Of a stretch of 64,000 bases of DNA, positions 11,179 through 47,826 are shown piece after piece (within the stretch, counting starts at the first letter, position 1; each line of letters begins with the position of its first letter). A model generated the notes under the pieces. The model ran no database searches, was not told the DNA's origin, and worked only from the letters and a program-made list of their open reading frames with translations. The DNA comes from an uncultured Gammaproteobacteria bacterium (lineage in GTDB: Bacteria > Patescibacteriota > Microgenomatia > Levybacterales > UBA12049), in NCBI GenBank assembly GCA_964507055.1, contig CAZDOJ010000002.1:687-64686 (forward strand). The letters are read 5' to 3'. The position numbers and the translations under genes are program-made.

Positions 11179-11251
11179 GCCGATGTAGCTCAACGGATAG
11201 AGCAATCCCGTCCTAAGGGAGAGGTTGTGAGTTCGATTCTCACCATCGGTA
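11179..11251 (+). tRNA. tRNA-Arg (anticodon CCT).
   Basis: Cloverleaf: acceptor GCCGATG/CATCGGT, D-arm GCTC-AACGGAT-AGAGC, anticodon stem/loop with loop GTCCTAA (anticodon CCT), T-arm GTGAG-TTCGATT-CTCAC, discriminator A. CCA is not encoded. Confidence 0.8.
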
Positions 11252-11262
11252 CTCAGGCTTAT

Positions 11263-11318
11263 GAGGAGGCCACCTGCTTGACAGGGGTGGTTGGAGGTTC
11301 GATTCCTCTCGACGGTAC
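11263..11318 (+). pseudogene. tRNA-like 3' fragment (T-arm plus acceptor 3' strand) with no matching 5' half. Possible tRNA remnant or integration scar.
   Basis: GGAGG-TTCGATT-CCTCT T-arm followed by CGACGGTAC. The upstream sequence does not supply a complementary acceptor 5' strand or a D-arm. Confidence 0.3.
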
Positions 11319-30840: not shown

Positions 30841-32691
30841 TTATCGACAAGCCATCTCTTTTTCATCGTAGGTAGTTTGGCAGCCTTTATCTCGAACACA
30901 TTGGTTGAATAAATCGCCACTTCTGCCATTTCGACAGAAGTTATAACATGCTTGACTCTCTATAACGACTGGTTCCATACATGCACCGTAGGTATTTTTA
31001 TAACCTTTTTGTTTGGCCAAACAATCAAAGTCGCTCTTTTTATTCAAATCTCCAATACTACATGCTGGCTCAGGATCTGCAGGTGCAGGATTTACTGGTG
31101 CTGGATCCGCAGGGGCTGGATTATTTCCTTTGCAAACGCCTGCTGAAATTTCAGCTGGAGTACAGTCATTTGGATTAGTTTGTCTATCTGCTGGTGCTTT
31201 ATAGTTTGGCGGATAAATCTTATTGGTATCTCGAGGAATCTCTGACTCTCCTGGAAGAGGTTTTTTGCCCGCAGGAACCTGGCTTGGTTGGCAGTAACCA
31301 AATTTTTCTACAGTATCTTTTGCACATGGAACTCCGAATTTATTTCGATACTGTGCATTATCTCTTGTCGCAGGAGCTGAATGATAGACAAAACATCCTG
31401 GTTGGCAACATCCATTAATAAGAGGGAAGTCACTTGCACAGCATTGGCCACTTTCGTTTGCACGATGTGATGGGCAGGATGGTTTGTATCCTATTGAGCT
31501 TCGTGGGTCAACACCTGGTGCAGCTGGCTTTGGAGGGAATGGATTTGTCTTTGGCTTAGCAGGGGATGGTGCTTTACACAATCCACTTGGAGGATTTACT
31601 GAAAGATCTACATATCCACTACAACATCCAGCCACATTATCTCCACTTTGACCATTTGGGATACATGCTTCTGCTTTGACTCCTGCATCATTTTGAGCCC
31701 CAATTGCATTGGCAACAATTTTTGCTCCAGCCACAGAAGGCTCATTGGTACTTGCCATATATTTAGCCGGTTGCGGGAATACTTGTTTGCCATCCTTATC
31801 AAACCACAACATTTCTACCGGACAGATCTTTGCACCAATGGCTCGCTTACAAAAATCTTTACAAGCATCACTATCAGGGGATGCTTTACAGAGTTGCTCG
31901 AGAATATCTTGTTCCTTTTGATCTAAAACAATATACTCATCACATTGTTGGTTTTCGCGTGCTTCACCAAGAACTGGACCAGAACATTGTCCGCCTTTAA
32001 ATATTTCACAATACTGACGACTCGTACAAAGAATATTCTTAGGATCTTTACTACAAAGTGCCTGGATATTGCTTTTGTCATTTGCGGTAAGAGTTTTTAC
32101 GCGGAGAGCTGTGCAGGCTGAACTTACGCGAACATTTGTGGCTTCTGTAATAGGGAGAGGTTGGCCATCGGTATTTGTGATGCCCGGTCCTACAACCCAA
32201 CCTTCACTTGGATCACCAGATTTGAACATATACGATGATTCTTTGCTGGTAAGGGTATCACCAGGATTAAGCGTCTTAGCTCCTTCCAATGGTTCAAAAG
32301 TTGCGATGTAATACTTTTTAAGTGACCCTGCAGCTATACCGTAATTTGCTATGTTAATTGGTAAATCTCCAATATTTTTATAGGTAAATGATCCTGAGAG
32401 GGTATCATTATAATAAATATTTTGCCCTACAAATTTTTGTCCATTCACCTTTATCAAACTTGCACCTTCTTGTCCCATACGGGTCCCACACAGTGTTGGA
32501 TCTGCTTCTCCTGTATGTAGACAACCAAAAATCGGGGGAGCATTAAATCCCTCTGCAAATTGCATGATACGCTGTGGCTGGAGGAGCGTAAAGACAGTCA
32601 ATGCCAGAATCGGCAACATGACGAAAAAGAAAAGCAAATTTCTTTTTTTATTCTTTACTTGTCTTGTATTCTTTTTTCTTAATTTAGCCAT
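30841..32691 (-). CDS. Secreted or membrane-anchored Cys-rich protein with a Pro/Ala repeat tract.
   Basis: N-terminal signal anchor. More than 40 Cys. PAPADPAPVNPAPADPEPA repeat. Confidence 0.4.
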   Translation of the reverse strand: MAKLRKKNTRQVKNKKRNLLFFFVMLPILALTVFTLLQPQRIMQFAEGFNAPPIFGCLHTGEADPTLCGTRMGQEGASLIKVNGQKFVGQNIYYNDTLSGSFTYKNIGDLPINIANYGIAAGSLKKYYIATFEPLEGAKTLNPGDTLTSKESSYMFKSGDPSEGWVVGPGITNTDGQPLPITEATNVRVSSACTALRVKTLTANDKSNIQALCSKDPKNILCTSRQYCEIFKGGQCSGPVLGEARENQQCDEYIVLDQKEQDILEQLCKASPDSDACKDFCKRAIGAKICPVEMLWFDKDGKQVFPQPAKYMASTNEPSVAGAKIVANAIGAQNDAGVKAEACIPNGQSGDNVAGCCSGYVDLSVNPPSGLCKAPSPAKPKTNPFPPKPAAPGVDPRSSIGYKPSCPSHRANESGQCCASDFPLINGCCQPGCFVYHSAPATRDNAQYRNKFGVPCAKDTVEKFGYCQPSQVPAGKKPLPGESEIPRDTNKIYPPNYKAPADRQTNPNDCTPAEISAGVCKGNNPAPADPAPVNPAPADPEPACSIGDLNKKSDFDCLAKQKGYKNTYGACMEPVVIESQACYNFCRNGRSGDLFNQCVRDKGCQTTYDEKEMACR

Positions 32692-32693
32692 AG

Positions 32694-33254
32694 CTACTGC
32701 AACATAGATGTTGGTATTAATGCATTGGTCATAATATGGATTACTCCGTTTTTGGTGTCTATATCATAAGTCTCAAAGTACGAATATCCATTGATGTTCC
32801 AATAGCCATTTGTTTTATTAAAGACTAATTTATCGCCTTGTATTGTTGTAAGTTCTAAGCCTTCTTTCAGGTCAGAAAAGTGATATTCGCCTTTAACAAT
32901 ATGAAACAAAAGGAACTCGCGTAATAAACCCTCTTGGTTTGGGTCACGAAGTCTTCCTGTTAAATCAGTAGAAAGCTTTCCAAAAGCCTGATCAGATGGA
33001 ACAAATACTGTATATGGTCCATTCTGATGAAGGAACGTATCAAAACCAGCAAGTCGTATAAGTGTATTAAATTGACGGGTTTTTTCGGAATAGGTTAAGT
33101 TGTCAGCGATATCGGATGAAGGACGCATTTGAATGCCATCGTATTCAATGATTGAGGTATTATGGTAAATCCAAATAAGTGCAGCAGGGATGAGTATCGC
33201 TAAAAGAATAACGATTATATAGACTGGTTTCTTTTTTACCTTTACTGTCATCAC
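32694..33254 (-). CDS. Fasciclin (FAS1) domain protein, membrane-anchored.
   Basis: GPYTVFVPSDQAFGKL and NGVIHIMTNALIP FAS1 motifs. Confidence 0.7.
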   Translation of the reverse strand: MMTVKVKKKPVYIIVILLAILIPAALIWIYHNTSIIEYDGIQMRPSSDIADNLTYSEKTRQFNTLIRLAGFDTFLHQNGPYTVFVPSDQAFGKLSTDLTGRLRDPNQEGLLREFLLFHIVKGEYHFSDLKEGLELTTIQGDKLVFNKTNGYWNINGYSYFETYDIDTKNGVIHIMTNALIPTSMLQ

Positions 33255-33315
33255 TTTATCTTATCTTAAGAAAAATAGAGAGTCAACGAGCTTCACCATA
33301 GTTGTGACCAATCCA

Positions 33316-33948
33316 TTATGGAGTTGGTTGGGCTGATGTTACTGCTGCCGTTGGGAAAGTCGTTGGAATACTGGTCGGAGATTTGTAGTTCGGTGGCATG
33401 ATCCCTGCTGTAGGTGCAGCTGTTGGAGCACCTGTCGGTACACCTGTAGGCGTACAAAATCCACCAATGACGAGCATTATATCCTTTGCACAACTGACCT
33501 TAAAGGCGTTCTTAAAGGGGGAGTTCTCACGAGTGAGGGGAGTTTGAATATATTTCGGTGTAGGTGTAGGCATATTAACTGGTCCTGAAGTGATTTTTCG
33601 GGCAGGAGCTTTTGTTGGAACTGGTGCTTTTGCAGCAGGGGCAAGATTAATAACGGGATTTGCTGGGGCCGCCGGTCCGGGTGCTCCTCCAGCACAATAA
33701 CCAGCACGGCCCGCTCCGTATGGAACACATGGTCCTGTCCCAACACATTGGTTATTTCCAGCCATATCACATCCTTGAGCCACGACTCTATTTACCTCTA
33801 GAGCATCTTTCTCTGCAGCAAACTGTCGTAGTATTTGTGATTGACTCAATGTAAATATAGTCAAGGCCAGAATAGGCAACATAATAAAAAAGAAAAGTAT
33901 ATTTTCTTTTTGTCTTTTAATAGTCTTTTTCTTTTTTATTTTGGCCAT
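33316..33948 (-). CDS. Secreted Pro/Ala/Thr-rich protein. Its N-terminal ~50 aa are paralogous to 30841-32691.
   Basis: The leader MAKIKKKKTIKRQKENILFFFIMLPILALTIFTL aligns with MAKLRKKNTRQVKNKKRNLLFFFVMLPILALTVFTL. Confidence 0.4.
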   Translation of the reverse strand: MAKIKKKKTIKRQKENILFFFIMLPILALTIFTLSQSQILRQFAAEKDALEVNRVVAQGCDMAGNNQCVGTGPCVPYGAGRAGYCAGGAPGPAAPANPVINLAPAAKAPVPTKAPARKITSGPVNMPTPTPKYIQTPLTRENSPFKNAFKVSCAKDIMLVIGGFCTPTGVPTGAPTAAPTAGIMPPNYKSPTSIPTTFPTAAVTSAQPTP

Positions 33949-33949
33949 A

Positions 33950-34501
33950 TTATTTAAGTTGACTTGGAGGTTTCATGAAGCTGGTAACTGTATGAATTAC
34001 ACCATTTTTACTTTCGACATTGTAAGTTTCAATGTATGAATAGCCGTTAATTATCCAATAATCTTTTGCTTTATTAAATTTGAGTTTCTCACCTTGGATA
34101 GTGGTTAATTCCATTCCATTTGTAATATCTTCAGCAAGATATCGTCCTCGAACTATATGATAGAGAAGCATTTGTCTGAGTGTTCCTTCTTGATCTGGAA
34201 GTTTCAAAGACTCGGTAAATTCATCAGAAAGGTTATTATACGCAGTATTTGTTGGTGCAAAGACTGTAAACGGACCAGGTTCATGAAGAATATCATCATA
34301 GCCAACTGATTCTAAAAGCGAGCCAAAACGATTTGTTTCTGGAGAATAGGAGAGGTTATCTGCAATATCCATAGAGGGACGCATATGCAGACCTTCATAT
34401 TCAATGGTCGATGGATTTGCATAAATAGTATATGCACCTACAGGAATAAAAATGAGAGGTAAAAGAATGATGATAATGAGTATTTTTGTTCGTAATTTCA
34501 T
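33950..34501 (-). CDS. Fasciclin (FAS1) domain protein, membrane-anchored. Paralog of 32694-33254.
   Basis: GPFTVFAPTNTAYNNL and NGVIHTVTSFMKPP. Confidence 0.7.
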   Translation of the reverse strand: MKLRTKILIIIILLPLIFIPVGAYTIYANPSTIEYEGLHMRPSMDIADNLSYSPETNRFGSLLESVGYDDILHEPGPFTVFAPTNTAYNNLSDEFTESLKLPDQEGTLRQMLLYHIVRGRYLAEDITNGMELTTIQGEKLKFNKAKDYWIINGYSYIETYNVESKNGVIHTVTSFMKPPSQLK

Positions 34502-35069: not shown

Positions 35070-35618
35070 CTAAGCACTAGCTCCTTTCTTTTCTTTAATT
35101 GCATTAAGTGTCATTACAAAATTTTGGATGTTCCAACTAAGTGCTCGATGCAAACCTTGTACAGGTGCATTCATCTGGCCAAGAAGTCGTGCTCGAAGTA
35201 CTGGCAATGGTGGGAGCGTTGCGATCTTTACAACTTCTTTATCTGTTACGATACTACCTTCAATAAGTCCAAATTTGATTGTTGGAAGTTTGAAATCTTT
35301 GATAGTCTTTGAAAGAAGTTTTAATGGTTCAACGATATCGCCATAGATAAAGAGTGCTGCTGTTGGTTGTGTAAATTTATTTTTTTCAGCTTCTGTATCA
35401 ATTTTATCTGTAAGTGCTCGGAGTAAAAGCGTGTTCTTCGCTGCTACAAATTCTGCATCAACTTTCTTCAAACCCTTTTTCAAACCCTCAAGTTGTTGAT
35501 GAGTAAGACCTTGGTAGTTTGCAAAAACAATACCATTTGCTTTACCGACCTTTTCGATAAGTTCTGCAGCAATTGCTTCTTTTTTTAATCTGTTTTGCGA
35601 TGTATTTACGTCTGCCAT
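35070..35618 (-). CDS. rplJ: 50S ribosomal protein L10.
   Basis: L10-family sequence, located immediately upstream of rplL. Confidence 0.8.
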   Translation of the reverse strand: MADVNTSQNRLKKEAIAAELIEKVGKANGIVFANYQGLTHQQLEGLKKGLKKVDAEFVAAKNTLLLRALTDKIDTEAEKNKFTQPTAALFIYGDIVEPLKLLSKTIKDFKLPTIKFGLIEGSIVTDKEVVKIATLPPLPVLRARLLGQMNAPVQGLHRALSWNIQNFVMTLNAIKEKKGASA

Positions 35619-35775
35619 ATTGATAAAAAAAAGACACTCTCGAGGAGTGCCGTGAAGTTCAAATAAACTAATGTGGCTCCTCGGTTGGGCTTACTTTTAC
35701 GCCAACTGTCTTTGGAATAATTAGTATTATAGCAGGGAAGGGGAAAAGTGTAAAGGGTAGTAAGGTTTTAAATTC

Positions 35776-38148
35776 TTACTGGGATCCAAGTGCTTGTTGG
35801 ATTGCACTTTTATATGCATCAGATCTAGCTTGATTCACAGTGCCACTTTCAGTAATAAAGCCTAAGTAATCACGTCCAGAATAGCCGTTCATAGTAAACA
35901 TATGTATCTCTTTAACCCATGGTCTATCCTTTGCAATTTTAACAAACTCTGGCATTGCACTGATATATTCTTGTTCAGAAGATGCTCGTTGATCTGTTAA
36001 ATTCATTTCAGTAATAATGAATGGTTTGCCATTTCCTCCCGGTTTGGACCACGCCCAAGCCTTTTTTTCATCAAGAACACTTGCCATTTCACTTGGTGTA
36101 AAGTAGAGATGGATTTCAAATCCATCAGCTAATTCGTATAGGTCAGGTACAGCGGCAAGGACTTGTTCTTGCCAGGTATTACTATCTGGATCAAGTGCTA
36201 CATATATTTTTGCATTTGGATTTGCAGCATGCCCGGCGATAATTGCATCCTTCATAATTCGTCCATAGGAAGCAGGGTCAATATCTCCTCCACGGAACCA
36301 ATTTCCATATGGTTCATTCATCCCTGAAAATGATTCGACTGCATATTGTGCTTGGTCTGGCTTGTTAGCAAAGTATGTTCCTCCTGGTCCATATTTTTTC
36401 ACTGCTTCTGCCATCTTGTTGGCATAATCTTGTCGATGTTTATCGAGGGAGGATAATCCTTCACCATCATTGACACAAAGCGATAAGTGCATTCCTTGAG
36501 CAGCTAGGGCCGGCAAGCCACCATTTGCGTCTTCAATGTTCACTTCACCCAGACAATCACGTGTTCCATTAACACCAAGAAGTGATTTAGCTCTTGCAGC
36601 AGCTCCATATCCGACTACTCCTGTTGCTCCATAAATCTTTTGCCCTGCTGTAGGAGCTGTCGATGGATTTGTACTTGGAGTTGGGGAAGTCCCAAAGAGC
36701 GTAGGAGTTGGATCCTGTGTAGGTTGTGCTCCAGTTGTAGGCACAGTTGTTGGCTCCACAGCATTGGTTGGTTCAGGGCATGGTGAAGGATTGCCCGGAT
36801 CTGTTGGGAGTGGGACATTGCCCCCACGAAGGATGTATTCGATAAGCCAGATCAGGAACTTCATAAACCGTTCGATGAAACCACCACCACGACCATGCTT
36901 GTGTTTTTTATGTTTTTTCTTGTTATGCATGACACTGCTTGTGCTTTCTTGACACGGGTTTATTGAAGGATACGGTGTACTTGCTCCACCTGAGGGATTA
37001 ACACCACCGCTAGGGACTGTTGATGGGTTTGTAGCACCACCACTCGGTGCGGCAGAGGTCGAAGGATTAATTGGTGCACAAGGAGGTTCTCCCACGCCAC
37101 CGACACAATAAATGGTTGGCGTAATAAGTGAAGGAGCTGTAGTAATCTGCGTTCCTGTCGAAGGTTGAACTCCTCCTGCAACTGGTGTGTAGCTGTTCCA
37201 CTCTTTTAACACTCGAAGTTTCTCCCACGGAATACCATTCATTTGATAGTAATCGCTGGTAAATCCTACGCTTGGATAAGGATCAGGTTTATCCATTGGA
37301 TGTTCAAATTGGAATGCCATACCTGCACCGCCACAGTCGATAACATATGCACCGTATTTTTGTAGTGCTTTTGCTACTGTTTTTTCACCTGCCGACATAG
37401 AGAGAGAATCAACATTTACAGATGGATCAAGCTGAATACGTGCACCTTCGGGGATTGCTCCAGCTCCACTATACTTTCCATCAGTTTTAACTGCAGGGAA
37501 GCGAATTTCATCAACGGCACAATAACTAGACGAGAATACTAAAGCATGCTCAATATTTCCTTGTTGCATTTCGTATGTTCTGACAATTCCAGCCAAACGT
37601 GAAGTTCCAGCTCCAATTGCTGAATTTTCAGGGGACCCTCGTCCGTCACCATCAAGGGGCAGAATTCCTCCCCAATTAGTCGTGGCTTTATCGTTTTTAT
37701 AAACCCAGAATTCATAACTTTTTCTTGAAGATAAATCAACAATCACCATTTGTCCGTCTGAGCCGGGAGCTTGCTTCGCATCGTCTGGGATTGGGACTTG
37801 TTCTGTCGAAATACCACAAGTACCCCAACTCTCAGTACAATTTATGTTATATTTGGGTGTATTTGCATCAGCGAAATATATAGGAGTACCGAACTCATAC
37901 AGGTCCGCAACCTTATCTCCACCGGCTAATGTTTGAACCATCTCAGCACTTTTCGGATCCAGTTGTACATTTGTGCCAATAGGCTGGTTCCATGCACTAT
38001 CATCTGCAAAAGGTCTTCCAGCATTTGGAGTCATATTTGTCGAAGCTTTACTGCGGTTATCTTGTTGTTGAAATACTGAGAAAATAGTGAGAGGAATTGC
38101 TAATGCAATTAATAGAGTAGGTATCAGGATATTAGGTTTTCTTCCCAT
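35776..38148 (-). CDS. Secreted modular protein: QQQDNRSKA leader, unknown N-terminal domain, shared cassette, and a C-terminal clan GH-A (GH5-like) TIM-barrel glycoside hydrolase.
   Basis: Leader FSVFQQQDNRSKAS. Putative acid/base GMNEPYG and nucleophile FIITEMN motifs, with FEIHLYF between them. Confidence 0.55.
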   Translation of the reverse strand: MGRKPNILIPTLLIALAIPLTIFSVFQQQDNRSKASTNMTPNAGRPFADDSAWNQPIGTNVQLDPKSAEMVQTLAGGDKVADLYEFGTPIYFADANTPKYNINCTESWGTCGISTEQVPIPDDAKQAPGSDGQMVIVDLSSRKSYEFWVYKNDKATTNWGGILPLDGDGRGSPENSAIGAGTSRLAGIVRTYEMQQGNIEHALVFSSSYCAVDEIRFPAVKTDGKYSGAGAIPEGARIQLDPSVNVDSLSMSAGEKTVAKALQKYGAYVIDCGGAGMAFQFEHPMDKPDPYPSVGFTSDYYQMNGIPWEKLRVLKEWNSYTPVAGGVQPSTGTQITTAPSLITPTIYCVGGVGEPPCAPINPSTSAAPSGGATNPSTVPSGGVNPSGGASTPYPSINPCQESTSSVMHNKKKHKKHKHGRGGGFIERFMKFLIWLIEYILRGGNVPLPTDPGNPSPCPEPTNAVEPTTVPTTGAQPTQDPTPTLFGTSPTPSTNPSTAPTAGQKIYGATGVVGYGAAARAKSLLGVNGTRDCLGEVNIEDANGGLPALAAQGMHLSLCVNDGEGLSSLDKHRQDYANKMAEAVKKYGPGGTYFANKPDQAQYAVESFSGMNEPYGNWFRGGDIDPASYGRIMKDAIIAGHAANPNAKIYVALDPDSNTWQEQVLAAVPDLYELADGFEIHLYFTPSEMASVLDEKKAWAWSKPGGNGKPFIITEMNLTDQRASSEQEYISAMPEFVKIAKDRPWVKEIHMFTMNGYSGRDYLGFITESGTVNQARSDAYKSAIQQALGSQ
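36690..37130 (-). repeat. Copy 1 of the shared ~140-aa Cys/polybasic/hydrophobic cassette (conserved at nucleotide level).
   Basis: LITPTIYCVGGVGEPPCAPI ... PYPSINPCQESTSSVMHNKKKHKKHKHGRGGGFIERFMKFLIWLIEYILRGGNVPLPTDPGNPSPCPEPT. Confidence 0.8.
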
Positions 38149-38201
38149 AGATAATAAGTAGTTCTAGTTTATATAAAAAATGGGGGTAAATACAAGTGTA
38201 A

Positions 38202-40205
38202 CTAGCGGCCAAGTGTGTTTATGAGAGAAGTATAAGCAGGTTTGGGTTGGAAATTAGAATCAAACATCAACGGATTTTGTCCCGAAAGCCATGTGTGTCC
38301 ATCGTAAAGTCCCCACGTTGTTATACCTGTGCATCCATTCTGTTTGCAAGCTGTCCCAAGTTCTGCATATCTACCGGCTTGATCGTCAATATTGATAACA
38401 TCAAGTTCAGTGATTTCAGCTTTTACTCCAGCTTCAGTAAGTCGTTTGATATTTGCACCGATTTCTGTACCAGTTCCTGGATAATCTCCCGCTGAATGCG
38501 TTTGGAGGCCGACTCCATTAATTGGGATCCCACGTGCCTTAAAGTCTTTTACCATATTGTAGACTGCATCAGATTTTGCTTTTTTATTCCCACCGCGATC
38601 GGCGATTCCTTCAGTCCCATAATCGTTATAGAATAACTCTGCATTTGGATCTGCTTCATGTGCCCATTGGAACGCTTTTGCAATGTAATCATCTCCAAGT
38701 TTTTGTTTCCAGACAGTATCTCTTAATGAACCATCATCATTAAATGCTTCGTTCACCACATCCCATTGTGCAACTTTTCCTTTATATCTTGTGACGACAG
38801 TTTGTATATGGTTTTTTAGTGCTGTTTCAGCTTCCGCATTACTTAATCCATCAACCCAGCCTGGTACTTCAATATGCCAAACGAGTGTATGGCCCCGAAC
38901 TCGCATATTATTTGCTTGTGCATAGTTCACTATTTTATCTGCACCGTCCCAATTAAACTGCCCTTGAGTTGGTTCAAGGGGACCAAACTTCATTGCATTT
39001 TCAGGGGTGAGGGAATCGAATTTATAGGTTTTTAATGTGTTAGTAAATGTTGCATTGTCGAGTTGGTCTGGTTCTATGGCTGCTCCCAAACGTACAGTCC
39101 CTGTTGAGGGGGCTGTTGTTGGGATTGTTCCAAAGAGCGTAGGGGTCGGATCCTGTGTAGGCTGTGCTCCCGTTGTCGGAACAATTGTTGGCTCCACGGC
39201 ATTGGTTGGTTCAGGACAAGGTGAAGGATTTCCTGGATCTGTTGGGAGTGGAACATTGCCACCACGAAGGATGTATTCGATTAACCAAATGAGGAATTTC
39301 ATAAACCTTTCGATGAAACCACCGCCACGACCGTGCTTATGTTTTTTATGTTTTTTCTTGTTATGCATGACACTACTTGTACTTTCTTGGCATGGGTCGA
39401 TTGAAGGATACGGCGTACTTGCTCCACCTGAAGGTGTAACACCACCAGTGACACCTGGCGTTCCATTGCCAGGAGTACCTCCACCAGTACTCGGAGTTGT
39501 TGTTCCAATCGGAGCACAAGGAGGTTCGCCAACACCACCGACACAATAGATTGTTGGTGTGATGAGTGTGGGAACAGGCTGTGTGGGTTGCACTGTTGTA
39601 GTTGTTGCAGGAATTGATTGCAAACAAGTCTTGGATTGGGGATCAAATACATTACCAGAAAACACTTCACGTCCTGCAGGAGGATTTACTTCAACTGCTG
39701 TTGTTTCTTTCGTCCACTGATTCTCACACTGAATGACACTATCTCCGGAATTGGTATCGCTGGTCATCCATATATCGATATGATATTTCTGACCGCTAGA
39801 CCAATCTGATATACATTGGGCACAGGTATCTTCCATGACGCCGTATTTTTTGAGAAAAGGAATATATACTTTTGTGCCAGCAGGAAATTCATTTGGATCG
39901 GTCGCAAATGTGACAGGATCTTCAAATGTTCCTACACCTCCTGCGGATTGATGAATTCCGGGAAGGGCAATATTTGCACTTGGAGGATCATTGTCTGGCC
40001 AGCCATAGAATGTTACCTGCATGTCTATTGTTTCAGTGGCTACTGTCTTTGCTGCCAGTGTTGATTCTTTTGGATTATCTTGTTGGCTATTTCGTTGCTG
40101 TAAATCTGCGTTATACTGTTGCGTTAGAGAATGAAGTGTAATGACTGGAACTATGACAATAGTGGCGAAAAGTATAAGTAATAAATGAGTCTTTTTCATA
40201 GTCAA
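38202..40205 (-). CDS. Secreted modular protein: N-terminal DPBB-fold (RlpA/3D/expansin-like) domain, shared cassette, and a C-terminal GH10 endo-1,4-beta-xylanase domain.
   Basis: GH10 blocks GHTLVWH, WDVVNEAFNDDGSLR, ITELDV, ITTWGLYDGHTW. N-terminal VTFYGWPDNDPP ... TKVYIPF. Confidence 0.75.
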   Translation of the reverse strand: MTMKKTHLLLILFATIVIVPVITLHSLTQQYNADLQQRNSQQDNPKESTLAAKTVATETIDMQVTFYGWPDNDPPSANIALPGIHQSAGGVGTFEDPVTFATDPNEFPAGTKVYIPFLKKYGVMEDTCAQCISDWSSGQKYHIDIWMTSDTNSGDSVIQCENQWTKETTAVEVNPPAGREVFSGNVFDPQSKTCLQSIPATTTTVQPTQPVPTLITPTIYCVGGVGEPPCAPIGTTTPSTGGGTPGNGTPGVTGGVTPSGGASTPYPSIDPCQESTSSVMHNKKKHKKHKHGRGGGFIERFMKFLIWLIEYILRGGNVPLPTDPGNPSPCPEPTNAVEPTIVPTTGAQPTQDPTPTLFGTIPTTAPSTGTVRLGAAIEPDQLDNATFTNTLKTYKFDSLTPENAMKFGPLEPTQGQFNWDGADKIVNYAQANNMRVRGHTLVWHIEVPGWVDGLSNAEAETALKNHIQTVVTRYKGKVAQWDVVNEAFNDDGSLRDTVWKQKLGDDYIAKAFQWAHEADPNAELFYNDYGTEGIADRGGNKKAKSDAVYNMVKDFKARGIPINGVGLQTHSAGDYPGTGTEIGANIKRLTEAGVKAEITELDVINIDDQAGRYAELGTACKQNGCTGITTWGLYDGHTWLSGQNPLMFDSNFQPKPAYTSLINTLGR
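39140..39570 (-). repeat. Copy 2 of the shared cassette.
   Basis: Identical polybasic-hydrophobic core to copy 1. Confidence 0.8.
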
Positions 40206-40237
40206 TTTGAAAATAATGTATCTACAAAGAAATTAAA

Positions 40238-41329
40238 CTAATTCTTTGGAGACATGCATGTTCCCGTAGCTTGATTCCAAATAGGATTTGGATCTACTGC
40301 AAGGTTTGCTGGAGGGTCGATAATAATTTGTTCATTACCAGATGGGGTGAGTGATTCTTCACATTGTATAACTGATTCACTATCTGAAGGATTTCCTACG
40401 TAGAGATCAACCATAGTTACTGCACCACATCCATCAGGAGCTGTCCATGAAACAGCACATTCGTCTTCACGAATAAAGTATTTTTGGACACGAGGGACAT
40501 AGATTTTCTGTCCAAATGCATATTCACCAGGACCAGCAGGGGAGGCAAATGTAAGTGGGTCTTCATATGATCCTGTCCCTCCAGCCTCTTGATGGATAAC
40601 TGGATTTGCAATTGCCTTTGAACCCTTTGGATCATTATCATATGAACCATAAAATGTAATCTTTACAGTTGCCTGAGTTCCACTACCTGTAGAAGGGGAC
40701 ACAGATGGAGAAACTGTTGGAGCCGTAGTTGTCCCAAATGTAGTTGGTGTTGGATCTTGTGTCGGTTGAGCTCCACCTGTTGGTTGGGTTGTAGGTTGTG
40801 GTTCTGTTGTTGGCTCAGGGCAAGGATTTGGAGTTCCTGGATCTGTTGGTGCAGGTACGCTACCGCCTCGAAGAATATATTGAATGAACCAAAATATAAA
40901 TTTAAAGAATCGTTCGAAGAATCCACCACCTCGACCTTGCTTGAACTTCTTTTTCTTTTTGTTATGCATGACACTGTTTGAACTGTCAGTATTACATGGA
41001 TCGACTGAAGGATATGGAGTACTTGCTCCACCTGTTGGATTTGTTACACCGGTAGGAGGAGCTGTAGAAGGTGAAGTACTTGCTCCGTTTGTCGGTGCTG
41101 TCGTTGAGGTTGGTGCCATGGTCGCACATGGAGCGGATCCTACGCCTCCAACACAATAAATTGTTGGTGTGATAAGGGTAGGAGCCATTGCTTGCAAAAC
41201 TGCTGTTTGTTGATTCTCACTAGCAGCTGCTTTACTGCGGTTGTCTTGGTTTTGCGATACAGAAAAAATAGTGAAAGGGAGGGCGAATAATAAAAAGAGG
41301 GTAGAAAGTAATAAGAATTTTTTCTGCAT
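40238..41329 (-). CDS. Secreted protein: QNQDNRSKA leader, a diverged copy of the shared cassette, and a C-terminal DPBB-fold domain.
   Basis: Leader FSVSQNQDNRSKAAA. Cassette SVMHNKKKKKFKQGRGGGFFERFFKFIFWFIQYILRGGSVPAPTDPG. C-terminal VKITFYGSYDNDPKG ... QKIYVPRVQKY. Confidence 0.6.
   Translation of the reverse strand: MQKKFLLLSTLFLLFALPFTIFSVSQNQDNRSKAAASENQQTAVLQAMAPTLITPTIYCVGGVGSAPCATMAPTSTTAPTNGASTSPSTAPPTGVTNPTGGASTPYPSVDPCNTDSSNSVMHNKKKKKFKQGRGGGFFERFFKFIFWFIQYILRGGSVPAPTDPGTPNPCPEPTTEPQPTTQPTGGAQPTQDPTPTTFGTTTAPTVSPSVSPSTGSGTQATVKITFYGSYDNDPKGSKAIANPVIHQEAGGTGSYEDPLTFASPAGPGEYAFGQKIYVPRVQKYFIREDECAVSWTAPDGCGAVTMVDLYVGNPSDSESVIQCEESLTPSGNEQIIIDPPANLAVDPNPIWNQATGTCMSPKN
40759..41185 (-). 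repeat. Copy 3 of the shared cassette (most diverged).
   Basis: See the parent CDS. Confidence 0.7.
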
Positions 41330-41401
41330 CTTACTTATATCGTATCCAAATTAAGGCGGCGTTACAATAGTTGCTTACAAAATAAATTGTACTTGTGAAA
41401 T

Positions 41402-43846
41402 TTATTTCTTGTACATGTGGACCCAATCTACTTCCATCTTACCTTCTTTAACTGGAGTTTGACCGGTGAGATTATCAAGTTGAATTGTTTGGTGCATTGA
41501 AACATTTGGATTTGATCCTTGGCCATCGGTTGAATAGATTTCTTGGCCATCAACATATCCTTTGAACCCAGCAGCTGTCCATTCAAAACCATAGACATGC
41601 CATTGAGAAATATCTACATCTTCTTCATGACTGAAACAATTTTGTGAAGCATTGCCAACACAATGGAGGAATACACCCATACCACTTCCAATATTTGACT
41701 CAAAGTAATCTAATTCACCGTCATTCCAAACATCAGTGTCTGGCCAAAGAATTAATACAGGGTGAGGTGCTGATCCACTCGTTCCTGTAGAATATGCTCG
41801 CATTCTGACTTCCCAGTATCCATATTTTTGTGCAAAGTCAGAAGACATACCACATGTTGATCCATCCGCGAGTTGTGTTTGCGTCAACATACCGTTACCA
41901 AATGTACATTGTGAAGATTTACGTCCACCGCCAACTACGGTATCACCACCGCCGCCGTCATACGCTGTCCATCCTGAAGGCATACTTGTACCATTAAAAT
42001 CTTCGCATTTACTTATCGTATATCCGGTGACTGGGGCATTTGGTGTAGCAGCTGATCCGCCACATGTTGTTGCCGTTGGATCTCCAGTTCCGCCTCCGGT
42101 TGAAGGAACAGGGGAAGCAGCTGTAGAAATAGTTGGAACCGCTGTTGTTCCGAATGTTGTAGGCGTTGGATCTTGTGTTGGCTCAGCTCCTCCTGTTGGT
42201 TCAGTTGTAGGCTGTGGCTCTGTTGTTGGTTCAGGACAAGGGTTATTCGGATCAGTTGGAAGTGGGACATTCCCGCCACGAAGGATATATTCAATTAACC
42301 AGATCAGGAACTTGATGAATCGTTCGATAAAGCCACCACCACGACCATGTTTGTGCTTTTTATGCTTTTTCTTATTATGCATGACACTATTTGTACTTTC
42401 TTGGCATGGTTCAACAGTGGAAGGGTATGGTGTGCTTGCACCACCAGAGGGGTTTACTCCACCAGTAACACCAGGAGTTCCTGAACCTGGAGATCCACCA
42501 CCTGCACCTGGAGTAGTTGTTCCATTAATCGGAGCACAAGGAGGTTCACCAACGCCACCGACACAATAAATTGTTGGTGTAATTAGGGATGGGGATGCAC
42601 TGATTGATGGATTTGCTCCACCGGTTGCACCAAATTCATATGCACCCATATCAATGCCACTGCCAGCAGGTCGAGCTTTATTCTCTTTATCAAATGTTGG
42701 AGCACCGTTAGCATCACCTTTATCAATAGCAGGGGAGCCTGCTGCAAGATGGTAGTCGCCATTACCTACGAAACCTGTCGTCGTAACAAGATTATTACCC
42801 ATTTGCAGGCCATTACCACTTGGATTACTCGTAAAGATGTTATTAAAGACAGGATTCGATCCACTTGGAGCTTCGACTACATTAATTGGCTTATCCTCAT
42901 CAATAGTATTGTTATAAACGCGGATATCTGACAATGTTCCTCCAGATTCTACCCAGAATGTTATACCGCCTCCAGCATTACCGTAGATAACATTATTAAA
43001 GATATCAATATTTCCAGCTTTTTTTGGATTCTCACTTCCTCCATAGGATGTTTCAGCAGCAATCATGATGCCGGCTTTACTTCCTTCGGTTGTGCCATAG
43101 GAAGTATTATTGTAGATTTTAATGCCACTTGAGCCATCGACATAAATGTTTGGACCGCGATTACCAAAGACTACATTGTCGTGAATAGTTCCGTTAACTT
43201 CACCTGCACCATTGTATTTAGCATCAATTCCTTCTTCGCCATTGTCATGAACTTGGCAATTCTTGATCTCAAAGCCTGTTGAGCCGCCAGTAATACTCAA
43301 AGCTTCGCCGTCAGCACCTGTACCTTCAGCATTTGTTCCGTGGATATTACAACCATCAACAACGACGTTTTTACTGCCAGATATTATCAATCCACCATCT
43401 TGTGAGCCATCAATCTCAAAGTCTTTTAGTACTAAACCATCTGCACCGTTGACTTGTGCACCAAAGCTGCTTGAGCCTTTTACTGTAATCCCGATGAGCG
43501 TAACACTCTGACCAGAGATTTTCATTGTGCCATTGGTTATTACGCGTCCTCCAGTTGCTTGAACTGTGACATTGCTTGCAGATATATCAAGTGTTTCATT
43601 ATATGTGCCTGCTGCGACATTGACAGTACCTCCTGATCCTGCTGATTGGATTGCAGAATTGATTGAGCCTCCGGGTTGAACGTCAACTGTTACTCTTGCG
43701 GATGCAGCTTTACTACGATTATCCTGTTGTTGGAGTGCTGCAATGACCGTAATAGGTAGAACGAACATTGTAACGAGAATAGCAAAAAGAACTTTACGAT
43801 TTTTCATCCGTATCTTTATGTTATATACAAAACTCGTGTAATACAA
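41402..43846 (-). CDS. Secreted modular protein: QQQDNRSKA leader, right-handed parallel beta-helix (pectate-lyase-like) domain, shared cassette, and a C-terminal GH16 beta-glucanase domain.
   Basis: Leader IAALQQQDNRSKAAS. PbH1-like repeats (NCQVHDNGEEGID, IHDNVVFGN, IFNNVIYGNAGGG). GH16 catalytic motif WNDGELDYFESN (ExDxxE). Confidence 0.7.
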   Translation of the reverse strand: MYYTSFVYNIKIRMKNRKVLFAILVTMFVLPITVIAALQQQDNRSKAASARVTVDVQPGGSINSAIQSAGSGGTVNVAAGTYNETLDISASNVTVQATGGRVITNGTMKISGQSVTLIGITVKGSSSFGAQVNGADGLVLKDFEIDGSQDGGLIISGSKNVVVDGCNIHGTNAEGTGADGEALSITGGSTGFEIKNCQVHDNGEEGIDAKYNGAGEVNGTIHDNVVFGNRGPNIYVDGSSGIKIYNNTSYGTTEGSKAGIMIAAETSYGGSENPKKAGNIDIFNNVIYGNAGGGITFWVESGGTLSDIRVYNNTIDEDKPINVVEAPSGSNPVFNNIFTSNPSGNGLQMGNNLVTTTGFVGNGDYHLAAGSPAIDKGDANGAPTFDKENKARPAGSGIDMGAYEFGATGGANPSISASPSLITPTIYCVGGVGEPPCAPINGTTTPGAGGGSPGSGTPGVTGGVNPSGGASTPYPSTVEPCQESTNSVMHNKKKHKKHKHGRGGGFIERFIKFLIWLIEYILRGGNVPLPTDPNNPCPEPTTEPQPTTEPTGGAEPTQDPTPTTFGTTAVPTISTAASPVPSTGGGTGDPTATTCGGSAATPNAPVTGYTISKCEDFNGTSMPSGWTAYDGGGGDTVVGGGRKSSQCTFGNGMLTQTQLADGSTCGMSSDFAQKYGYWEVRMRAYSTGTSGSAPHPVLILWPDTDVWNDGELDYFESNIGSGMGVFLHCVGNASQNCFSHEEDVDISQWHVYGFEWTAAGFKGYVDGQEIYSTDGQGSNPNVSMHQTIQLDNLTGQTPVKEGKMEVDWVHMYKK
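42166..42586 (-). repeat. Copy 4 of the shared cassette.
   Basis: SVMHNKKKHKKHKHGRGGGFIERFIKFLIWLIEYILRGGNVPLPTDPNNPCPEPT. Confidence 0.8.
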
Positions 43847-43877
43847 GTATTATTTTAGACTTTCTTTATCTTTAAGA

Positions 43878-44015
43878 TCATCTCGGTTCAATAAGAAATG
43901 GCTCCACGGTTTGTGCCTTGGTTCTATTATCTTGTCCTTGAAGTGCCATAAATACGGCGAATGGAATGACCAGAAGAGAAAGTAAAAGAAGAATAAGAAT
44001 TTCTTTGCGTTTCAT
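43878..44015 (-). CDS. Leader-only mini-ORF (45 aa): signal-anchor helix plus QGQDNRTKA motif, then stop.
   Basis: Manual translation of the minus strand: MKRKEILILLLLSLLVIPFAVFMALQGQDNRTKAQTVEPFLIEPR*. It is below the 60-aa cut-off of the ORF track. Confidence 0.4.
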   Translation of the reverse strand: MKRKEILILLLLSLLVIPFAVFMALQGQDNRTKAQTVEPFLIEPR

Positions 44016-44068
44016 GAACTATAACTATCGTAGCTGAAGAAATCTAGTCTTTCAAGAGAAGGGGAGTA

Positions 44069-44899
44069 TTACAAAGAAGCTGTTTCTATCTTTAGTCCTG
44101 GTGACATTGTGGATTTCAAGGTTACATTCTTAATATTCTTTACTTTAACTGCACTTACAGCTGTTTTGATGTTATCAGCTAATTTTTTATCACCAAATGA
44201 AACTTTACCTACTGCCATATGAAGAATAGGGAATTTAGCTTCAGTTTTGAAATTAATTTGTCCACCAGCAAACTTCTTTGCTGCTTCCTCAGGTTTTGGA
44301 GTCACTGTTCCATTTTTTGGATTTGGCATAAGTCCTCGTGGTCCAAGCACACGTGCAACTCGTGCAAGTTTTGGCATAGAATCAGGTGTCGCGATCAACA
44401 CATCAAAATCTACTTTTCCAGCTTCAATTGCTTTAATTAATTCTTCAACAGCTTTTGGATCTTCAGAAGCATTTGCAACTACAACTCGTGTCTCTTTACC
44501 AGTTCCATGAGGCAATACGACATTTCCATTGATTCCTTTTTCATTTGTATTAATGTGAAGTTCGACCGTTTCATCAAACTTTGCTCTTTGGAGCTTTGGA
44601 AGTAATTCGAGTGCTTCCGCTAAAGCGTATTTTTTATTCTTATCAACTTCAGATGAAACTTTATTGTAACTCTTTGAGTGTTTTACTTTCTTTTCAGCAG
44701 TTTGCTTTACGTAGTTTTTCCCTTTTTCAGGTTTTGATTCCGGAGATTCAGTTACTTCAGCTGTTGCTACTTTTTCATCAGCAGCTTTTGCCGCTGCTTC
44801 TAATCCAGCTTTTTTTGCTTCAGCCTTTTTCTCAGCTCGTAGCTTTTCTTTATTTTCTTGTTCTTCGTCTCCGACTGTTTTGACTCTAATTTTTCCCAT
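44069..44899 (-). CDS. rplA: 50S ribosomal protein L1 with a ~95-aa Lys/Glu/Ala-rich N-terminal extension.
   Basis: L1 core GKVDFDVLIATPDSMPKLARVARVLGPRGLMPNPKNGTVT. N-terminus KEKLRAEKKAEAKKAGLEAAAKAADEK. Confidence 0.85.
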   Translation of the reverse strand: MGKIRVKTVGDEEQENKEKLRAEKKAEAKKAGLEAAAKAADEKVATAEVTESPESKPEKGKNYVKQTAEKKVKHSKSYNKVSSEVDKNKKYALAEALELLPKLQRAKFDETVELHINTNEKGINGNVVLPHGTGKETRVVVANASEDPKAVEELIKAIEAGKVDFDVLIATPDSMPKLARVARVLGPRGLMPNPKNGTVTPKPEEAAKKFAGGQINFKTEAKFPILHMAVGKVSFGDKKLADNIKTAVSAVKVKNIKNVTLKSTMSPGLKIETASL

Positions 44900-45340: not shown

Positions 45341-46009
45341 TTAGATCTTCTTAACTTGTAAGAAGTCGAGTTCTACTGGAGTTTCACGTCCAAAGATACT
45401 TACGAGAACTTTAACTTTACCTCGAGCGTCATCAATGGATTCGATTGTACCTAAGAATTCACTGAAAGGACCGTCTGTAATCTTCACAGCTTCACCAACA
45501 ACAAATTGTACTTTGTACATTGGTTCCTCGAGTTGCATAAACTTCTGGATTGCTTCAACTTCTTTTTCAGAGATTGGAGTTGGTTTGTTACCAGCACCAA
45601 TGAATGAAGTAACACCTTGTGTACTTCTGACCATGAACCAAGTTTCATCGTCAAGCTTCATCTTTACCAAAACATATCCTGGAAAGATCTTTTCTTTAAC
45701 GGTTTCTTTTTTGCCTTGTGAAACTTTAATTGTATTTCGTGTAGGAACGATGATATCAAAAACTCGATCTGTGAACTTCATCGCTTCAACACGCTGTTTA
45801 AGTGATCGCTCTACTTTGTTTTCGTGTCCAGCGTAGGTATGAATGATGTACCATCGTGCACCTTCTGAAGCTTTTGCTCGTGCATCAGCATCTTCTTGTG
45901 CTTTCTTTGCAGCATCATCTGCGATTACATCTTCGACAGGAGTTTCTTCCTGTACTTCAGTAGCCTCTACTTCTTGTTCGTCTTTAACTGTTTGTTTTGT
46001 GTGATCCAT
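45341..46009 (-). CDS. nusG: Transcription termination/antitermination factor NusG with an acidic N-terminal extension.
   Basis: [25 protein letters not shown] (NGN domain). C-terminal KOW ([25 protein letters not shown]). Confidence 0.85.
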
Positions 46010-46015
46010 AATATT

Positions 46016-46198
46016 TTATCTTAGTAATGTTTCGACAGCAGTGGTGAAGACATAATCTAAACCTCCAATGTACAAGCCCATTATAACACTTAATATGATA
46101 ACAATTGTGGTCAATCGAAAAACTTCTTTCCGTGTCGGCCAAACTACAAGTTTGAGTTCATCCCATATCTGGCGGAAAAATATTATCGGTGCTGTCAT
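46016..46198 (-). CDS. secE: Preprotein translocase subunit SecE.
   Basis: 60 aa, VVWPTRKEVFRLTTIVIILSVIMGLYIGGLD. Canonical position upstream of nusG. Confidence 0.8.
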   Translation of the reverse strand: MTAPIIFFRQIWDELKLVVWPTRKEVFRLTTIVIILSVIMGLYIGGLDYVFTTAVETLLR

Positions 46199-46301: not shown

Positions 46302-46970
46302 ATGATAAGTGAAGAGGTAATTTCCTATATAAGAAAAGCACATAGCCTAAAGGTTTCAGACCAGCAAATCACAACAGATCTTCAAAGAAGTGGCTGGACG
46401 CTTAATGATATTCAACAAGGATTTGCACAAGAGTCGGGGAAAGTTATAACAGAAGATCTTACACCGCCAATGAAACCAGCAGCGGTAAATGCCCATGGAA
46501 TGTGGGATGCTTTTGAGCACATTCTCCTTTTTATTAGTCTCTATGTTATGGCAACATCTATCGCTGTTATCTTATATTTTCTAGTTGATAAGTGGAGCCC
46601 AAGCTCACTTGCTGCTGTAAGTTCTAATGCTTACATTAACGATACAGCAGAAATTATTGTGAGAGGCTTTTTGGCAGCTCTTATCGTCTCTCTTCCGCTT
46701 TTTATTTTCTTTTATTTAGATATAACAAAAAGAACACTTAAAGATGCAACAATGCGTAATATCCGTGCAAGGAAAATATTAATCTATATTACTTTGGTTA
46801 CAACTTTCCTTACGATGCTGGGGCATATCATCGGAGTGATTTTTTCTTTATTGAGTGGGAGTGTCGATCTTAATTCAGTGCTTCATTTACTTGTTACTCT
46901 TCTTATAAACGGTATTATCTTTGCATATTACTTATTACAGGTAAAAGAGGATAGGAGTATTCATGCGTAG
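46302..46970 (+). CDS. Hypothetical multi-pass membrane protein.
   Basis: Soluble N-terminal ~60 aa, then 4 TM helices. Confidence 0.35.
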   Translation: MISEEVISYIRKAHSLKVSDQQITTDLQRSGWTLNDIQQGFAQESGKVITEDLTPPMKPAAVNAHGMWDAFEHILLFISLYVMATSIAVILYFLVDKWSPSSLAAVSSNAYINDTAEIIVRGFLAALIVSLPLFIFFYLDITKRTLKDATMRNIRARKILIYITLVTTFLTMLGHIIGVIFSLLSGSVDLNSVLHLLVTLLINGIIFAYYLLQVKEDRSIHA

Positions 46971-47826
46971 TTATTACCTTTTTTCAGCTGTACTAGGACT
47001 TTTAGGTTTAGCATTGATTATTACTACATTTGGAATAATAGGTTCGCCTCTCGACCAAAAAGCAAAACAGTTTGATGCACAGAGACTAAATGATTTTTCT
47101 GCAATTGCAAGTACAATGGATACCTATTTATACGACAAAAAAGAACTTCCTAAAAAACTTTCTGATCTGAAAGACAATGGGACCACTAGTAGTCAGTTGT
47201 CATTTACAGATCCTGAAACGAAAAAAGAATATGCTTATACAGTAGTTAATACTCATTCATATCAATTATGTACTGATTTCTCCTCGGATATGGTTTCCGA
47301 TGAAGTTAAAAATTATAGTAGTGGTACGTATGTAGATACGTACTACCTTAATCGATATGCCAAAGATAAGAATTTTAAGCATAAAAAAGGCTACGATTGT
47401 TTAACATTTGAACATCCTGAACCAGAGAATACTATGCAATATAATACGAATAGCTATACATATCCACAAATATCCTCTACAATTTCAAAATCCTCAACTC
47501 CATCAGCTAAGTTGCTTAGTGTTAAAAAAACAGGGGATTGTGAATGGGTGGCAACGCTTCAGCTTGAAGGATTTTCTCCAAATACAACATTTTATGCAAA
47601 ATCAGAAGGGACAATAACTGAAGGATGCGATACTGCTAACACACATCCATATAGTTGGATGGCAGGACCAGGTGGACAAGCTGACGCGAATGGGAATACA
47701 GTTTTTGATTACACACAGCGTGATTATGGTAACTATACATATACCTTTACTGACACACAAGGGAAATCAGCAGCAGTGAGTTTCAAATATTCACTTACAA
47801 CAACTCCCACACCAAGTGCCAACTAG
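46963..47826 (+). CDS. Hypothetical secreted or anchored protein.
   Basis: N-terminal TM. No recognisable family. Confidence 0.35.
   Translation: MRSYYLFSAVLGLLGLALIITTFGIIGSPLDQKAKQFDAQRLNDFSAIASTMDTYLYDKKELPKKLSDLKDNGTTSSQLSFTDPETKKEYAYTVVNTHSYQLCTDFSSDMVSDEVKNYSSGTYVDTYYLNRYAKDKNFKHKKGYDCLTFEHPEPENTMQYNTNSYTYPQISSTISKSSTPSAKLLSVKKTGDCEWVATLQLEGFSPNTTFYAKSEGTITEGCDTANTHPYSWMAGPGGQADANGNTVFDYTQRDYGNYTYTFTDTQGKSAAVSFKYSLTTTPTPSAN

Follow-up and report, generated by a model that had tools for sequence, protein, structure and literature searches.

A variable locus of modular secreted-enzyme genes between rplA and rplJ in Candidatus Levyibacteriota

How do several long genes for secreted enzymes come to stand in the middle of a ribosomal protein gene cluster, and is this a peculiarity of one genome or a habit of its lineage? 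The question is raised by a stretch of 64,000 nucleotides (contig CAZDOJ010000002.1, hereafter the window) from a genome of Candidatus Levyibacteriota, Microgenomates of the candidate phyla radiation (CPR), in which the best matches of ribosomal protein L1 are proteins of 265 to 300 aa, some of them labelled Levyibacteriota. Genes were located by listing the open reading frames (ORFs) and by Pfam across the window. They run on the minus strand in the order secE-nusG-rplK-rplA, four long ORFs (C1 to C4), rplJ-rplL, and then two pairs of fasciclin and Cys-rich genes. The interval between rplA and rplJ (35619-44068, 8450 nt, hereafter the island) holds the four genes, and both coordinates and Pfam bear out the initial annotation, which had described secreted-enzyme genes on the ribosomal strand between rplA (44069) and rplJ (35618). 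The answer that we consider likely is that these 8.45 kb are native and form an accessory locus characteristic of the lineage, located at the boundary of two independently regulated ribosomal units, with exchange of cassettes and expression by read-through.

Gene order was compared, as the initial annotation had suggested, in 26 related genomes, Levyibacteriota or Patescibacteria metagenome-assembled genomes fetched through L1 similarity, by mapping the proteins of the window onto each of them. Of the 20 loci that have both rplA and rplJ, 17 show a distance of more than 600 nt between the two (median, 2.8 kb; maximum, 7.5 kb) and only three have them contiguous, the spacers there measuring 240 to 340 nt. 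For one more locus, rplJ is absent within 10 kb of rplA, and three contigs end in non-ribosomal genes past rplA. At the other junctions, splits of more than 600 nt number 0/18 for secE-nusG, 0/21 for nusG-rplK, 1/23 for rplK-rplA and 0/20 for rplJ-rplL. The block secE-nusG-rplK-rplA is intact in the window, and its spacers are below 400 nt in the relatives, save that between rplK and rplA in L035. In this distant genome (L1 39% identical) the two genes stand 3.5 kb apart with three ORFs (6288-10001), the sole split at another junction in the set. The split between rplA and rplJ is a lineage trait, particular to this boundary.

A second departure concerns the other end of the cluster. Set against the canonical arrangement, the window keeps secE-nusG-rplK-rplA contiguous and in the same direction, but rplA is not immediately followed by the rplJ leader, nor rplL by rpoB-rpoC. 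A search for the RpoB and RpoC motifs (RHGNKG and NADFDGD) found none in the window and the 26 related loci, although it lacked a positive control. There is no long co-directional ORF after rplL, and Pfam on the downstream genes gives fasciclin only. The fasciclin and Cys-rich tandem pairs (30841-34501, minus strand), noted from the start as replacing rpoB, directly follow rplL and are kept in two relatives (L014 and L039). By the same motif search, rpoB is unlinked from rplL in every related locus. The split and this unlinking sustain lineage-specific remodelling, one of the two explanations that the initial annotation had offered.

The content of the gap is far less conserved than its position. 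In distant relatives (L1 identity of 62% or less) the gap genes are miscellaneous, some of them on the opposite strand, and include GH1, a GH63-like hydrolase, a dehydrogenase, glycosyltransferases, methyltransferases, a transporter, DUF11 proteins and, in one relative, an IS200-type transposase. In closer relatives (L1 identity of about 64 to 81%) the genes after rplA are co-directional and code for secreted proteins that bear a common module, described below, with polysaccharide lyase, ricin, beta-helix, GH16, GSDH and peptidase (A4, BSP and M64) domains as catalytic or partner domains. The number of gap genes in this sub-clade goes from one to five, and their form is signal peptide, domain A, module, domain B. 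Through homologs of C4 we found additional loci (L036 to L040 and a JGI contig). L036 reads secE-nusG-rplK-rplA-(GH5+GH16)-(Metallophos)-(GSDH+GH18)-(alginate lyase)-rplJ, with one central module per gap gene, L038 has rplA-(GH26+module), and the JGI contig has rplK-rplA-(C4-type N-domain+module+peptidase A4). L039 carries a two-gene island of the L014 type and stems from the run series that also gave the Logan contigs of the window. Two related populations of Levyibacteria appear in one run series, L039 (SRR14271365) with the two-gene island and L001 to L009 (SRR14271331-361) with the four-gene one.

The closest relative, L014, is a closed chromosome of 1.61 Mb whose L1 is 81% identical, and it shares the layout of the window, as does L039. 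By blastn the flanks are colinear at 77 to 84% identity and the interior is a mosaic. L014 is without window positions 42194-41041, i.e., the GH16 domain, the signal peptide of C2 and the beginning of its module, and has a single beta-helix-module-DPBB-like gene where the window has C1 and C2. It is also without the whole of C3 (40245-38197). The C-terminal domain of C4 (36769-35761) is swapped there for a polysaccharide-lyase-like domain, and homology resumes at 35761, the rplJ promoter. The orthologs of C1 and C4 are ca. 80% identical. Across the relatives, what comes after a C4-type N-domain and module is one of five different C-terminal domains (GH-A, polysaccharide lyase, BSP peptidase with ricin, peptidase A4 and GH114), GH16 is paired with a beta-helix here and with a bare signal peptide in L010, and the beta-helix is paired with GH16 here and with a DPBB-like domain in L014 and P0153. 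Because the differences from L014 map to module edges or to the rplJ promoter, and because the domains change partners, these comparisons indicate a shuffling of cassettes, apparently by recombination at the module. An alginate lyase gene of the window at 29077-30492 (plus strand), 5 kb downstream of rplL, has a catalytic domain (PF08787) close to the C-terminal domain of P0220 (L036 10001-12034), which follows a module within the gap between rplA and rplJ: one cassette, then, with another partner and at another address.

The module itself was overlooked by the initial annotation, along with a putative DPBB domain in C3, the N-terminal domain of C4 and a signal-peptide relic at 43880-44014. 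All four island proteins contain one internal copy, of about 145 aa, with the pattern LITPTIYCVGGVGEPPC ... PC.ES..SVMHNKKKHKKHKHGRGGGFIERFMKFLIWLIEYILRGG ... PCPEPT ... DPTPTLFGT. It is Cys/Pro-rich, with conserved Cys pairs and a polybasic Lys/His-rich stretch followed by an amphipathic helix (GGGFIERFMKFLIWLIEYIL), in which, as inspected by hand, the polar residues E3, R4, K7 and E14 are on one face and W and Y at the edges. A hidden Markov model (HMM) of the module recovered exactly four copies over the 64-kb window, all of them within the island and on the minus strand, in C1 (42206-42589, 179 bits), C2 (40790-41179, 191 bits), C3 (39186-39569, 189 bits) and C4 (36748-37131, 194 bits). 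Their DNA makes up the repeat families D1 to D3, in which similarity begins and ends sharply at the module edges, and the C3 copy is 89% identical over 300 nt to that of C4. Synonymous divergence (dS) is 0.74 for the C3-C4 pair and 1.2 to 2.1 for the other pairs, with ratios of nonsynonymous to synonymous divergence (dN/dS) of 0.07 to 0.14; the copies are old paralogs under purifying selection. The HMM also matches gap genes of L010, L011, L012, L013, L014, L016 and L033, and among the many secreted enzymes of Levyibacteria that share it the module occurs in internal position, at the N-terminus behind the signal peptide, at the C-terminus or as a tandem duplicate (P0123). No homolog was detectable in Pfam, NCBIfam or the PDB. 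The module profile gave no match at E<=1e-3 in a set of 5.8 billion proteins, probably owing to compositional bias, none of the 84 pattern matches obtained with a tighter alignment was confirmed by tblastn, and a degenerate DNA pattern had no match. With its polybasic stretch and an amphipathic helix of interfacial type, the module is probably a tether that keeps the enzymes on a membrane or cell surface.

The four proteins differ in what is attached to it. C1 (41402-43807, minus strand, 801 aa in an independent gene call) has a signal peptide, a parallel beta-helix with a choice-of-anchor Q motif (Pfam Beta_helix, 1.8e-15, and NosD; NCBIfam choice_anch_Q, 7.8e-13), the module and a GH16 domain that belongs to its family by PF00722 (32.1 bits against a cut-off of 22, profile positions 14-174 of 175). 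C3 (38202-40199, minus strand, start codon from an independent gene call) consists of a signal peptide, a putative 3D/DPBB-like domain, the module and a xylanase-type GH10 domain, whose membership is equally clear (PF00331, E=1e-99, 334 bits, profile positions 9-309 of 311). The GH10 and beta-helix/GH16 calls made from the first reading are thus borne out by Pfam. C2 (40238-41329, minus strand) has a signal peptide, the module and a putative 3D/DPBB-like domain, with no Pfam match. Its C-terminal domain is 40% identical to the N-terminal domain of C3, and its ortholog in L014 and P0153 is fused behind a beta-helix. For this shared domain the DPBB call of the initial annotation is kept as plausible in the form of a 3D/DPBB (MltA-YuiC-like) fold, for which the matches are weak (Pfam 3D, E=0.034; NCBIfam SpsC/YuiC, E=0.081). 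An AlphaFold2 model from a 3-sequence alignment had a predicted local distance difference test (pLDDT) of 30, and a PDB profile search was negative.

C4 (35776-38148, minus strand) has no Pfam match at E<=0.001. It is made of a signal peptide, an orphan domain of about 290 aa that is distantly MltA/DPBB-like, the module and a TIM-barrel domain of clan GH-A. The C-terminal domain had been called clan GH-A and GH5-like. The clan holds by transitive homology: the domain has 261 HMMER homologs, 60 of which were scanned and gave GH39 (18), Glyco_hydro_cc (18), GH42 (16) and GH5 (7), plus GH17 and GH10, and in their alignment the NE is invariant and the TE nearly so, C4 itself carrying MNEPYG and ITEMN. 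The family does not, as GH5 and Glyco_hydro_cc each score 15.7 bits (E=0.011), under the curated cut-offs, and we assign the domain to the clan without a family. The N-domain has about 100 homologs, in which it is paired with malectin, ricin, FN3, SLH or dockerin domains. Its structure model has a pLDDT of 95, and Foldseek found nothing at E<1 for it in the PDB. Sequence searches of the PDB with both C4 domains and with that of C2 yielded no useful match. The signal peptides of C1, C2 and C4 are homologous to each other (...LP.TIFSV.QQQDNRSKA) and form the DNA repeat family D4. A similar one opens an ORF of 44 codons between rplA and C1 (43880-44014, minus strand; MKRKEILILLLLSLLVIPFAVFMALQGQDNRTKAQ..., like the N-termini of C1, C2 and C4, …IPFAVFMALQGQDNRTKAQ…, then a stop), which probably remains from the 5' end of a fifth cassette gene since lost. 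At its position L014 and L039 have an ORF of 176 aa, to which a cytidylyltransferase-like match among the gap ORFs may belong.

How can such an insertion be compatible with the expression of the ribosomal genes? The upstream unit starts with secE (46016-46198; a 60-aa ORF, 52 to 97% identical across relatives, the L036 ortholog of which was called PF00584 SecE), with a promoter-like site TTGTCA-17-TAAAAT ahead of it (46273-46245) in the promoter scan. It continues with nusG (45341-46009; Pfam NusG, E=6e-30, and KOW), rplK for L11 (44911-45333; Ribosomal_L11_N and Ribosomal_L11) and rplA, which codes for an L1 of 276 aa with the N-terminal extension typical of the lineage (44069-44899; Ribosomal_L1, E=1e-36). 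Downstream of the island are rplJ for L10 (35070-35618; Ribosomal_L10, E=2.8e-19) and rplL for L7/L12 (34631-35020, by Pfam), all on the minus strand. Right after C4, and on the same strand, is the best-scoring sigma-70-like site of a 17-kb scan, TTTACA-17-TGcTATAAT (35726-35754; 11/12 matches, extended -10). It leads into an L10 leader (35617-35733, minus strand; Rfam RF00557) with a terminator-like hairpin, GGCACTCCTCGAGAGTGTC, and then T8. The RF00557 score of 40.2 bits is below the gathering score of 44 (E=1.9e-5), but the match is full length (model 1-138/138 on 35733-35617), ends at the rplJ start codon, and has the AGACAG...CCGAGG stem and the terminator hairpin. Scores are similar in L031 (39 bits), where the leader fills the short spacer between contiguous rplA and rplJ, and in L014 (37.8 bits), where it is directly upstream of rplJ; the hairpin and T-run ahead of rplJ are kept in most relatives. 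It should be noted that the totals of the promoter and terminator scan equal the shuffled expectation, and the evidence drawn from it is limited to the top-scoring rplJ promoter and the hairpin of the leader. Rfam found no leader or RNA element in the rplA-C1 and secE-rplA regions, and only one tRNA in the whole window at gathering thresholds.

Since rplJL has its own promoter and L10 leader, the island sits between two autonomous transcription units and breaks no operon. Inserted genes always come after the stop codon of rplA and before the promoter/leader of rplJ. The statement that the island interrupts the operon was right about the position of the genes and overstated as to its consequence. 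No terminator-like site was found in the 17-kb scan between rplA and C1 or in the intergenic spacers of the island, and all gap genes of the module-bearing clade are co-directional with the ribosomal genes, which makes read-through of the island from the secE/rplKA unit plausible.

The mechanism that we propose combines these elements. The boundary would tolerate insertions since the L10 leader and promoter travel with rplJ. Catalytic cassettes would be gained, lost or swapped via homologous recombination between the module and signal-peptide repeats, and whole arrays could possibly be exchanged too, the conserved rplA and rplJ sequences on either side serving as homology arms. Read-through from the strong secE/rplKA unit would account for at least part of the transcription of the island genes, to their benefit, and the terminator and promoter of the L10 leader would insulate rplJL from this read-through. 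The module, in turn, would tether the enzymes at the surface. A bolder version, in which the gap of this sub-clade would be a locus dedicated to diversification and expression, the module anchoring the enzymes at the cell or host surface and its DNA acting as a recombination joint through which catalytic domains could enter many pairings, and in which read-through from the ribosomal promoter would couple the secreted enzymes of a symbiont to its growth rate without dedicated regulators, appears doubtful to us. Several points weigh against the proposal of a native locus with cassette exchange and read-through. The read-through and its benefit are inferred from sequence, and weak promoter-like sites do exist within the island, at chance frequency. 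The module genes of L037 and L040 lie away from ribosomal genes, so that the association is strong but not exclusive. The relatives are a set defined by L1 similarity, not a systematic sample, and the differences from L014 may stem from insertion here or from deletion there.

Had the island been a recent horizontal acquisition, as a mobile element or foreign DNA inserted in the ribosomal cluster of this genome, one would point to its total GC content, which is above that of the flanking ribosomal genes (0.43-0.44 vs 0.37-0.39), to a content unlike that of the closest relative and to the IS200-type transposase in the gap of a distant one. However, the excess of GC sits at codon position 2, reflecting a Pro/Thr/Gly/Ser-rich sequence. 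A check of GC and codon usage, also suggested by the initial annotation, gave a GC content at position 3 (GC3) of 0.24 to 0.30 against 0.20 to 0.34 elsewhere in the window, and a low distance in relative synonymous codon usage, inside the range of the genome. Pfam detected no integrase or transposase domains among the island proteins, no tRNA lies in the island (those of the window are only at 11.2 kb), and no direct repeats flank it, the repeats found being the internal module and signal-peptide families only. Because GC3 and codon usage match the genome and integrase, insertion sequence and tRNA are absent, the island is not a recent foreign insertion, and the idea was rejected on GC3 and codon usage. 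The one-off acquisition that had been the other explanation of the initial annotation is likewise not supported, since relatives with an L1 identity as low as 64% have homologous module genes at this site, and we regard a foreign origin as highly improbable. An error of assembly or binning, whether a chimera at 35.6 or 44.0 kb or a repeat that was resolved wrongly, is less credible still. It could be suspected from the four repeat copies, and the independent short-read Logan contigs do break, only within the module copies of C3 and C4, the most similar ones, so that no contig among them joins GH10 to the C4 N-domain. Yet contigs from several runs cover the C-terminus of C4 with rplJ and rplL, and others the stretch from nusG through rplK, rplA, C1 and C2 to the start of C3; at least five runs supply assemblies across the outer junctions, and contigs also run through the C1 and C2 copies. 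The architecture recurs, moreover, in the closed chromosome of L014 and in several other contigs. As independent assemblies span both junctions, the assembly is not chimeric at 35.6 or 44.0 kb, the idea of a chimera (also raised in the initial annotation) was rejected on these contigs, and, because just two direct repeats remain unspanned, the order of the segments is unambiguous.

The two remaining alternatives accept the island as native and differ on how stable it is and on what maintains it. An ancient fixed operon, with the enzymes functionally integrated in the ribosomal cluster and their content conserved, would agree with a site that is filled in most relatives, with a signal peptide and module family common to the sub-clade, and with the C1 and C4 orthologs of L014. 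It is at odds with a gene number of one to five, with catalytic domains that vary between relatives, with the lack of C3 and of the GH16 cassette and the replaced C4 C-terminal domain in L014, and with distant relatives whose cargo is unrelated, partly on the opposite strand, or missing. The fixed ancestral arrangement that the initial annotation had envisaged as a refutation does not hold, as content turns over even between the closest relatives, and we find this alternative very unlikely. A neutral permissive site, at which self-sufficient units tolerate insertions with no selective tie to ribosomal expression and the module is a mere linker, fares somewhat better, though we judge it rather unlikely. 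The autonomy of rplJL speaks for it, as do the miscellaneous and at times antisense cargo of distant relatives and the fact that the same boundary is the commonest split of the cluster in Proteobacteria (PMC4481853) and is also split in Bradyrhizobium, Actinomyces and Streptomyces. What it would not predict is that the gap genes counted in the module-bearing clade are all co-directional and of one family, that the module is under strong purifying selection and that structural differences coincide with its edges.

Other observations in the window lie outside the island. The Cys-rich proteins after rplL (210 and 616 aa) have their N-terminal 45 residues in common and no family match. On the other side of the cluster, between glmS and secE, a DUF5671 gene and a gene for a 287-aa protein form a pair at 46302-47826 (plus strand), opposite in strand to secE. 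The pair is missing at that spot in L014, where glmS and secE are adjacent, and has homologs downstream of rplL in L012 and L015; it represents a second rearrangement beside the ribosomal cluster. Farther away, ARAGORN called two tRNAs at 11179-11318 (plus strand), Arg-CCT (11179-11252) and Gln-TTG (11242-11318), with an overlap of 11 nt; Rfam confirms only Arg-CCT. A giant protein of 2708 aa (2437-10563, plus strand) has an M23 peptidase domain, four Laminin_G_3 (LamG-type) and four DUF2341 domains; an unannotated ORF of 784 aa precedes it, and a sortase gene is nearby (11774-12517).

With their minimal genomes, CPR organisms presumably depend on polymers from a host or from the environment. 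Here, the most conserved gene block of bacteria has a defined weak seam, which one CPR lineage has made a standing address for variable cargo. In compact form, the locus is also a natural case of secreted enzymes whose domains are shuffled, one signal peptide and module going with GH5, GH10, GH16, GH18, GH26, GH114, polysaccharide lyases, peptidases and other partners. Two uncharacterised protein elements are flagged by it, the module and the domain of about 290 aa that lacks a solved structural relative. The conserved rplA and rplJ flanks should ease amplification of the locus or its mining in metagenomes. A broad repertoire of glycoside hydrolases has been described in Microgenomates (PMC5581439).

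Among the papers that we found, none describes the pervasive and variable split of Levyibacteria, a site devoted to one modular family or the module itself. Splits at this point are nevertheless known. In Mycobacterium tuberculosis, the mmaA1-4/lipG genes lie between rplA and rplJ. The cluster splits mostly at the rplKA/rplJL border (PMC4481853), genes separate rplKA from rplJL in Bradyrhizobium diazoefficiens and Actinomyces israelii (bioRxiv 10.1101/2025.04.14.645983), an rplKA-orf31-rplJL cluster is reported in Streptomyces griseus (Kuster et al. 1998), and the larger ribosomal cluster, too, is known to carry insertions of several genes between its operons (PMC8046335). Common to these cases and ours are accessory genes exactly at the border of the L11 and L10 units and an rplJL that retains its promoter and leader. 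Different here are the near-universality of the split in the lineage (17/20), its highly variable size and content, the additional loss of the rplL-rpoB linkage and the dedication of the site, in one sub-clade, to a single modular family of secreted enzymes.

Hypervariable surface-polysaccharide loci also have a fixed address, as in the pneumococcal cps between dexB and aliA or the O-antigen of Escherichia coli between galF and gnd. The island is like them in its position among conserved genes, its variable mosaic interior and the presumed homologous recombination in the flanks, although here the recombination is deduced from comparison. It differs in carrying secreted hydrolases, lyases and peptidases instead of biosynthetic genes, in having ribosomal-protein flanks, and in the internal module repeats, which would add a finer level of shuffling. 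Cellulosomal, dockerin-bearing enzymes and modular glycoside hydrolases resemble the island proteins in being secreted and multidomain, with catalytic and accessory domains joined by Pro/Thr-rich linkers and a common non-catalytic module in many pairings. However, the module has no signature of dockerin, cohesin or carbohydrate-binding module; it has Cys pairs, a Lys/His stretch and a helix and lies between globular domains. Pfam found no dockerin or cohesin in the island proteins and no scaffoldin was found, the only Dockerin_1 match, sub-threshold (22.6 bits against a cut-off of 22.9), being in the separate alginate lyase at 29077-30492. With polysaccharide utilisation loci, finally, the island shares co-directional carbohydrate-active enzymes (GH10, GH16, a clan GH-A domain and a beta-helix), but their specificities are mutually unrelated, change between relatives and are accompanied by peptidases, GSDH and a phosphoesterase, and by Pfam no transporter, SusC/D pair, sensor or regulator goes with them between 30.8 and 47.8 kb. 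The rplKA-rplJL split is thus shared with other phyla, and the newer elements are the module and one structurally orphan domain.

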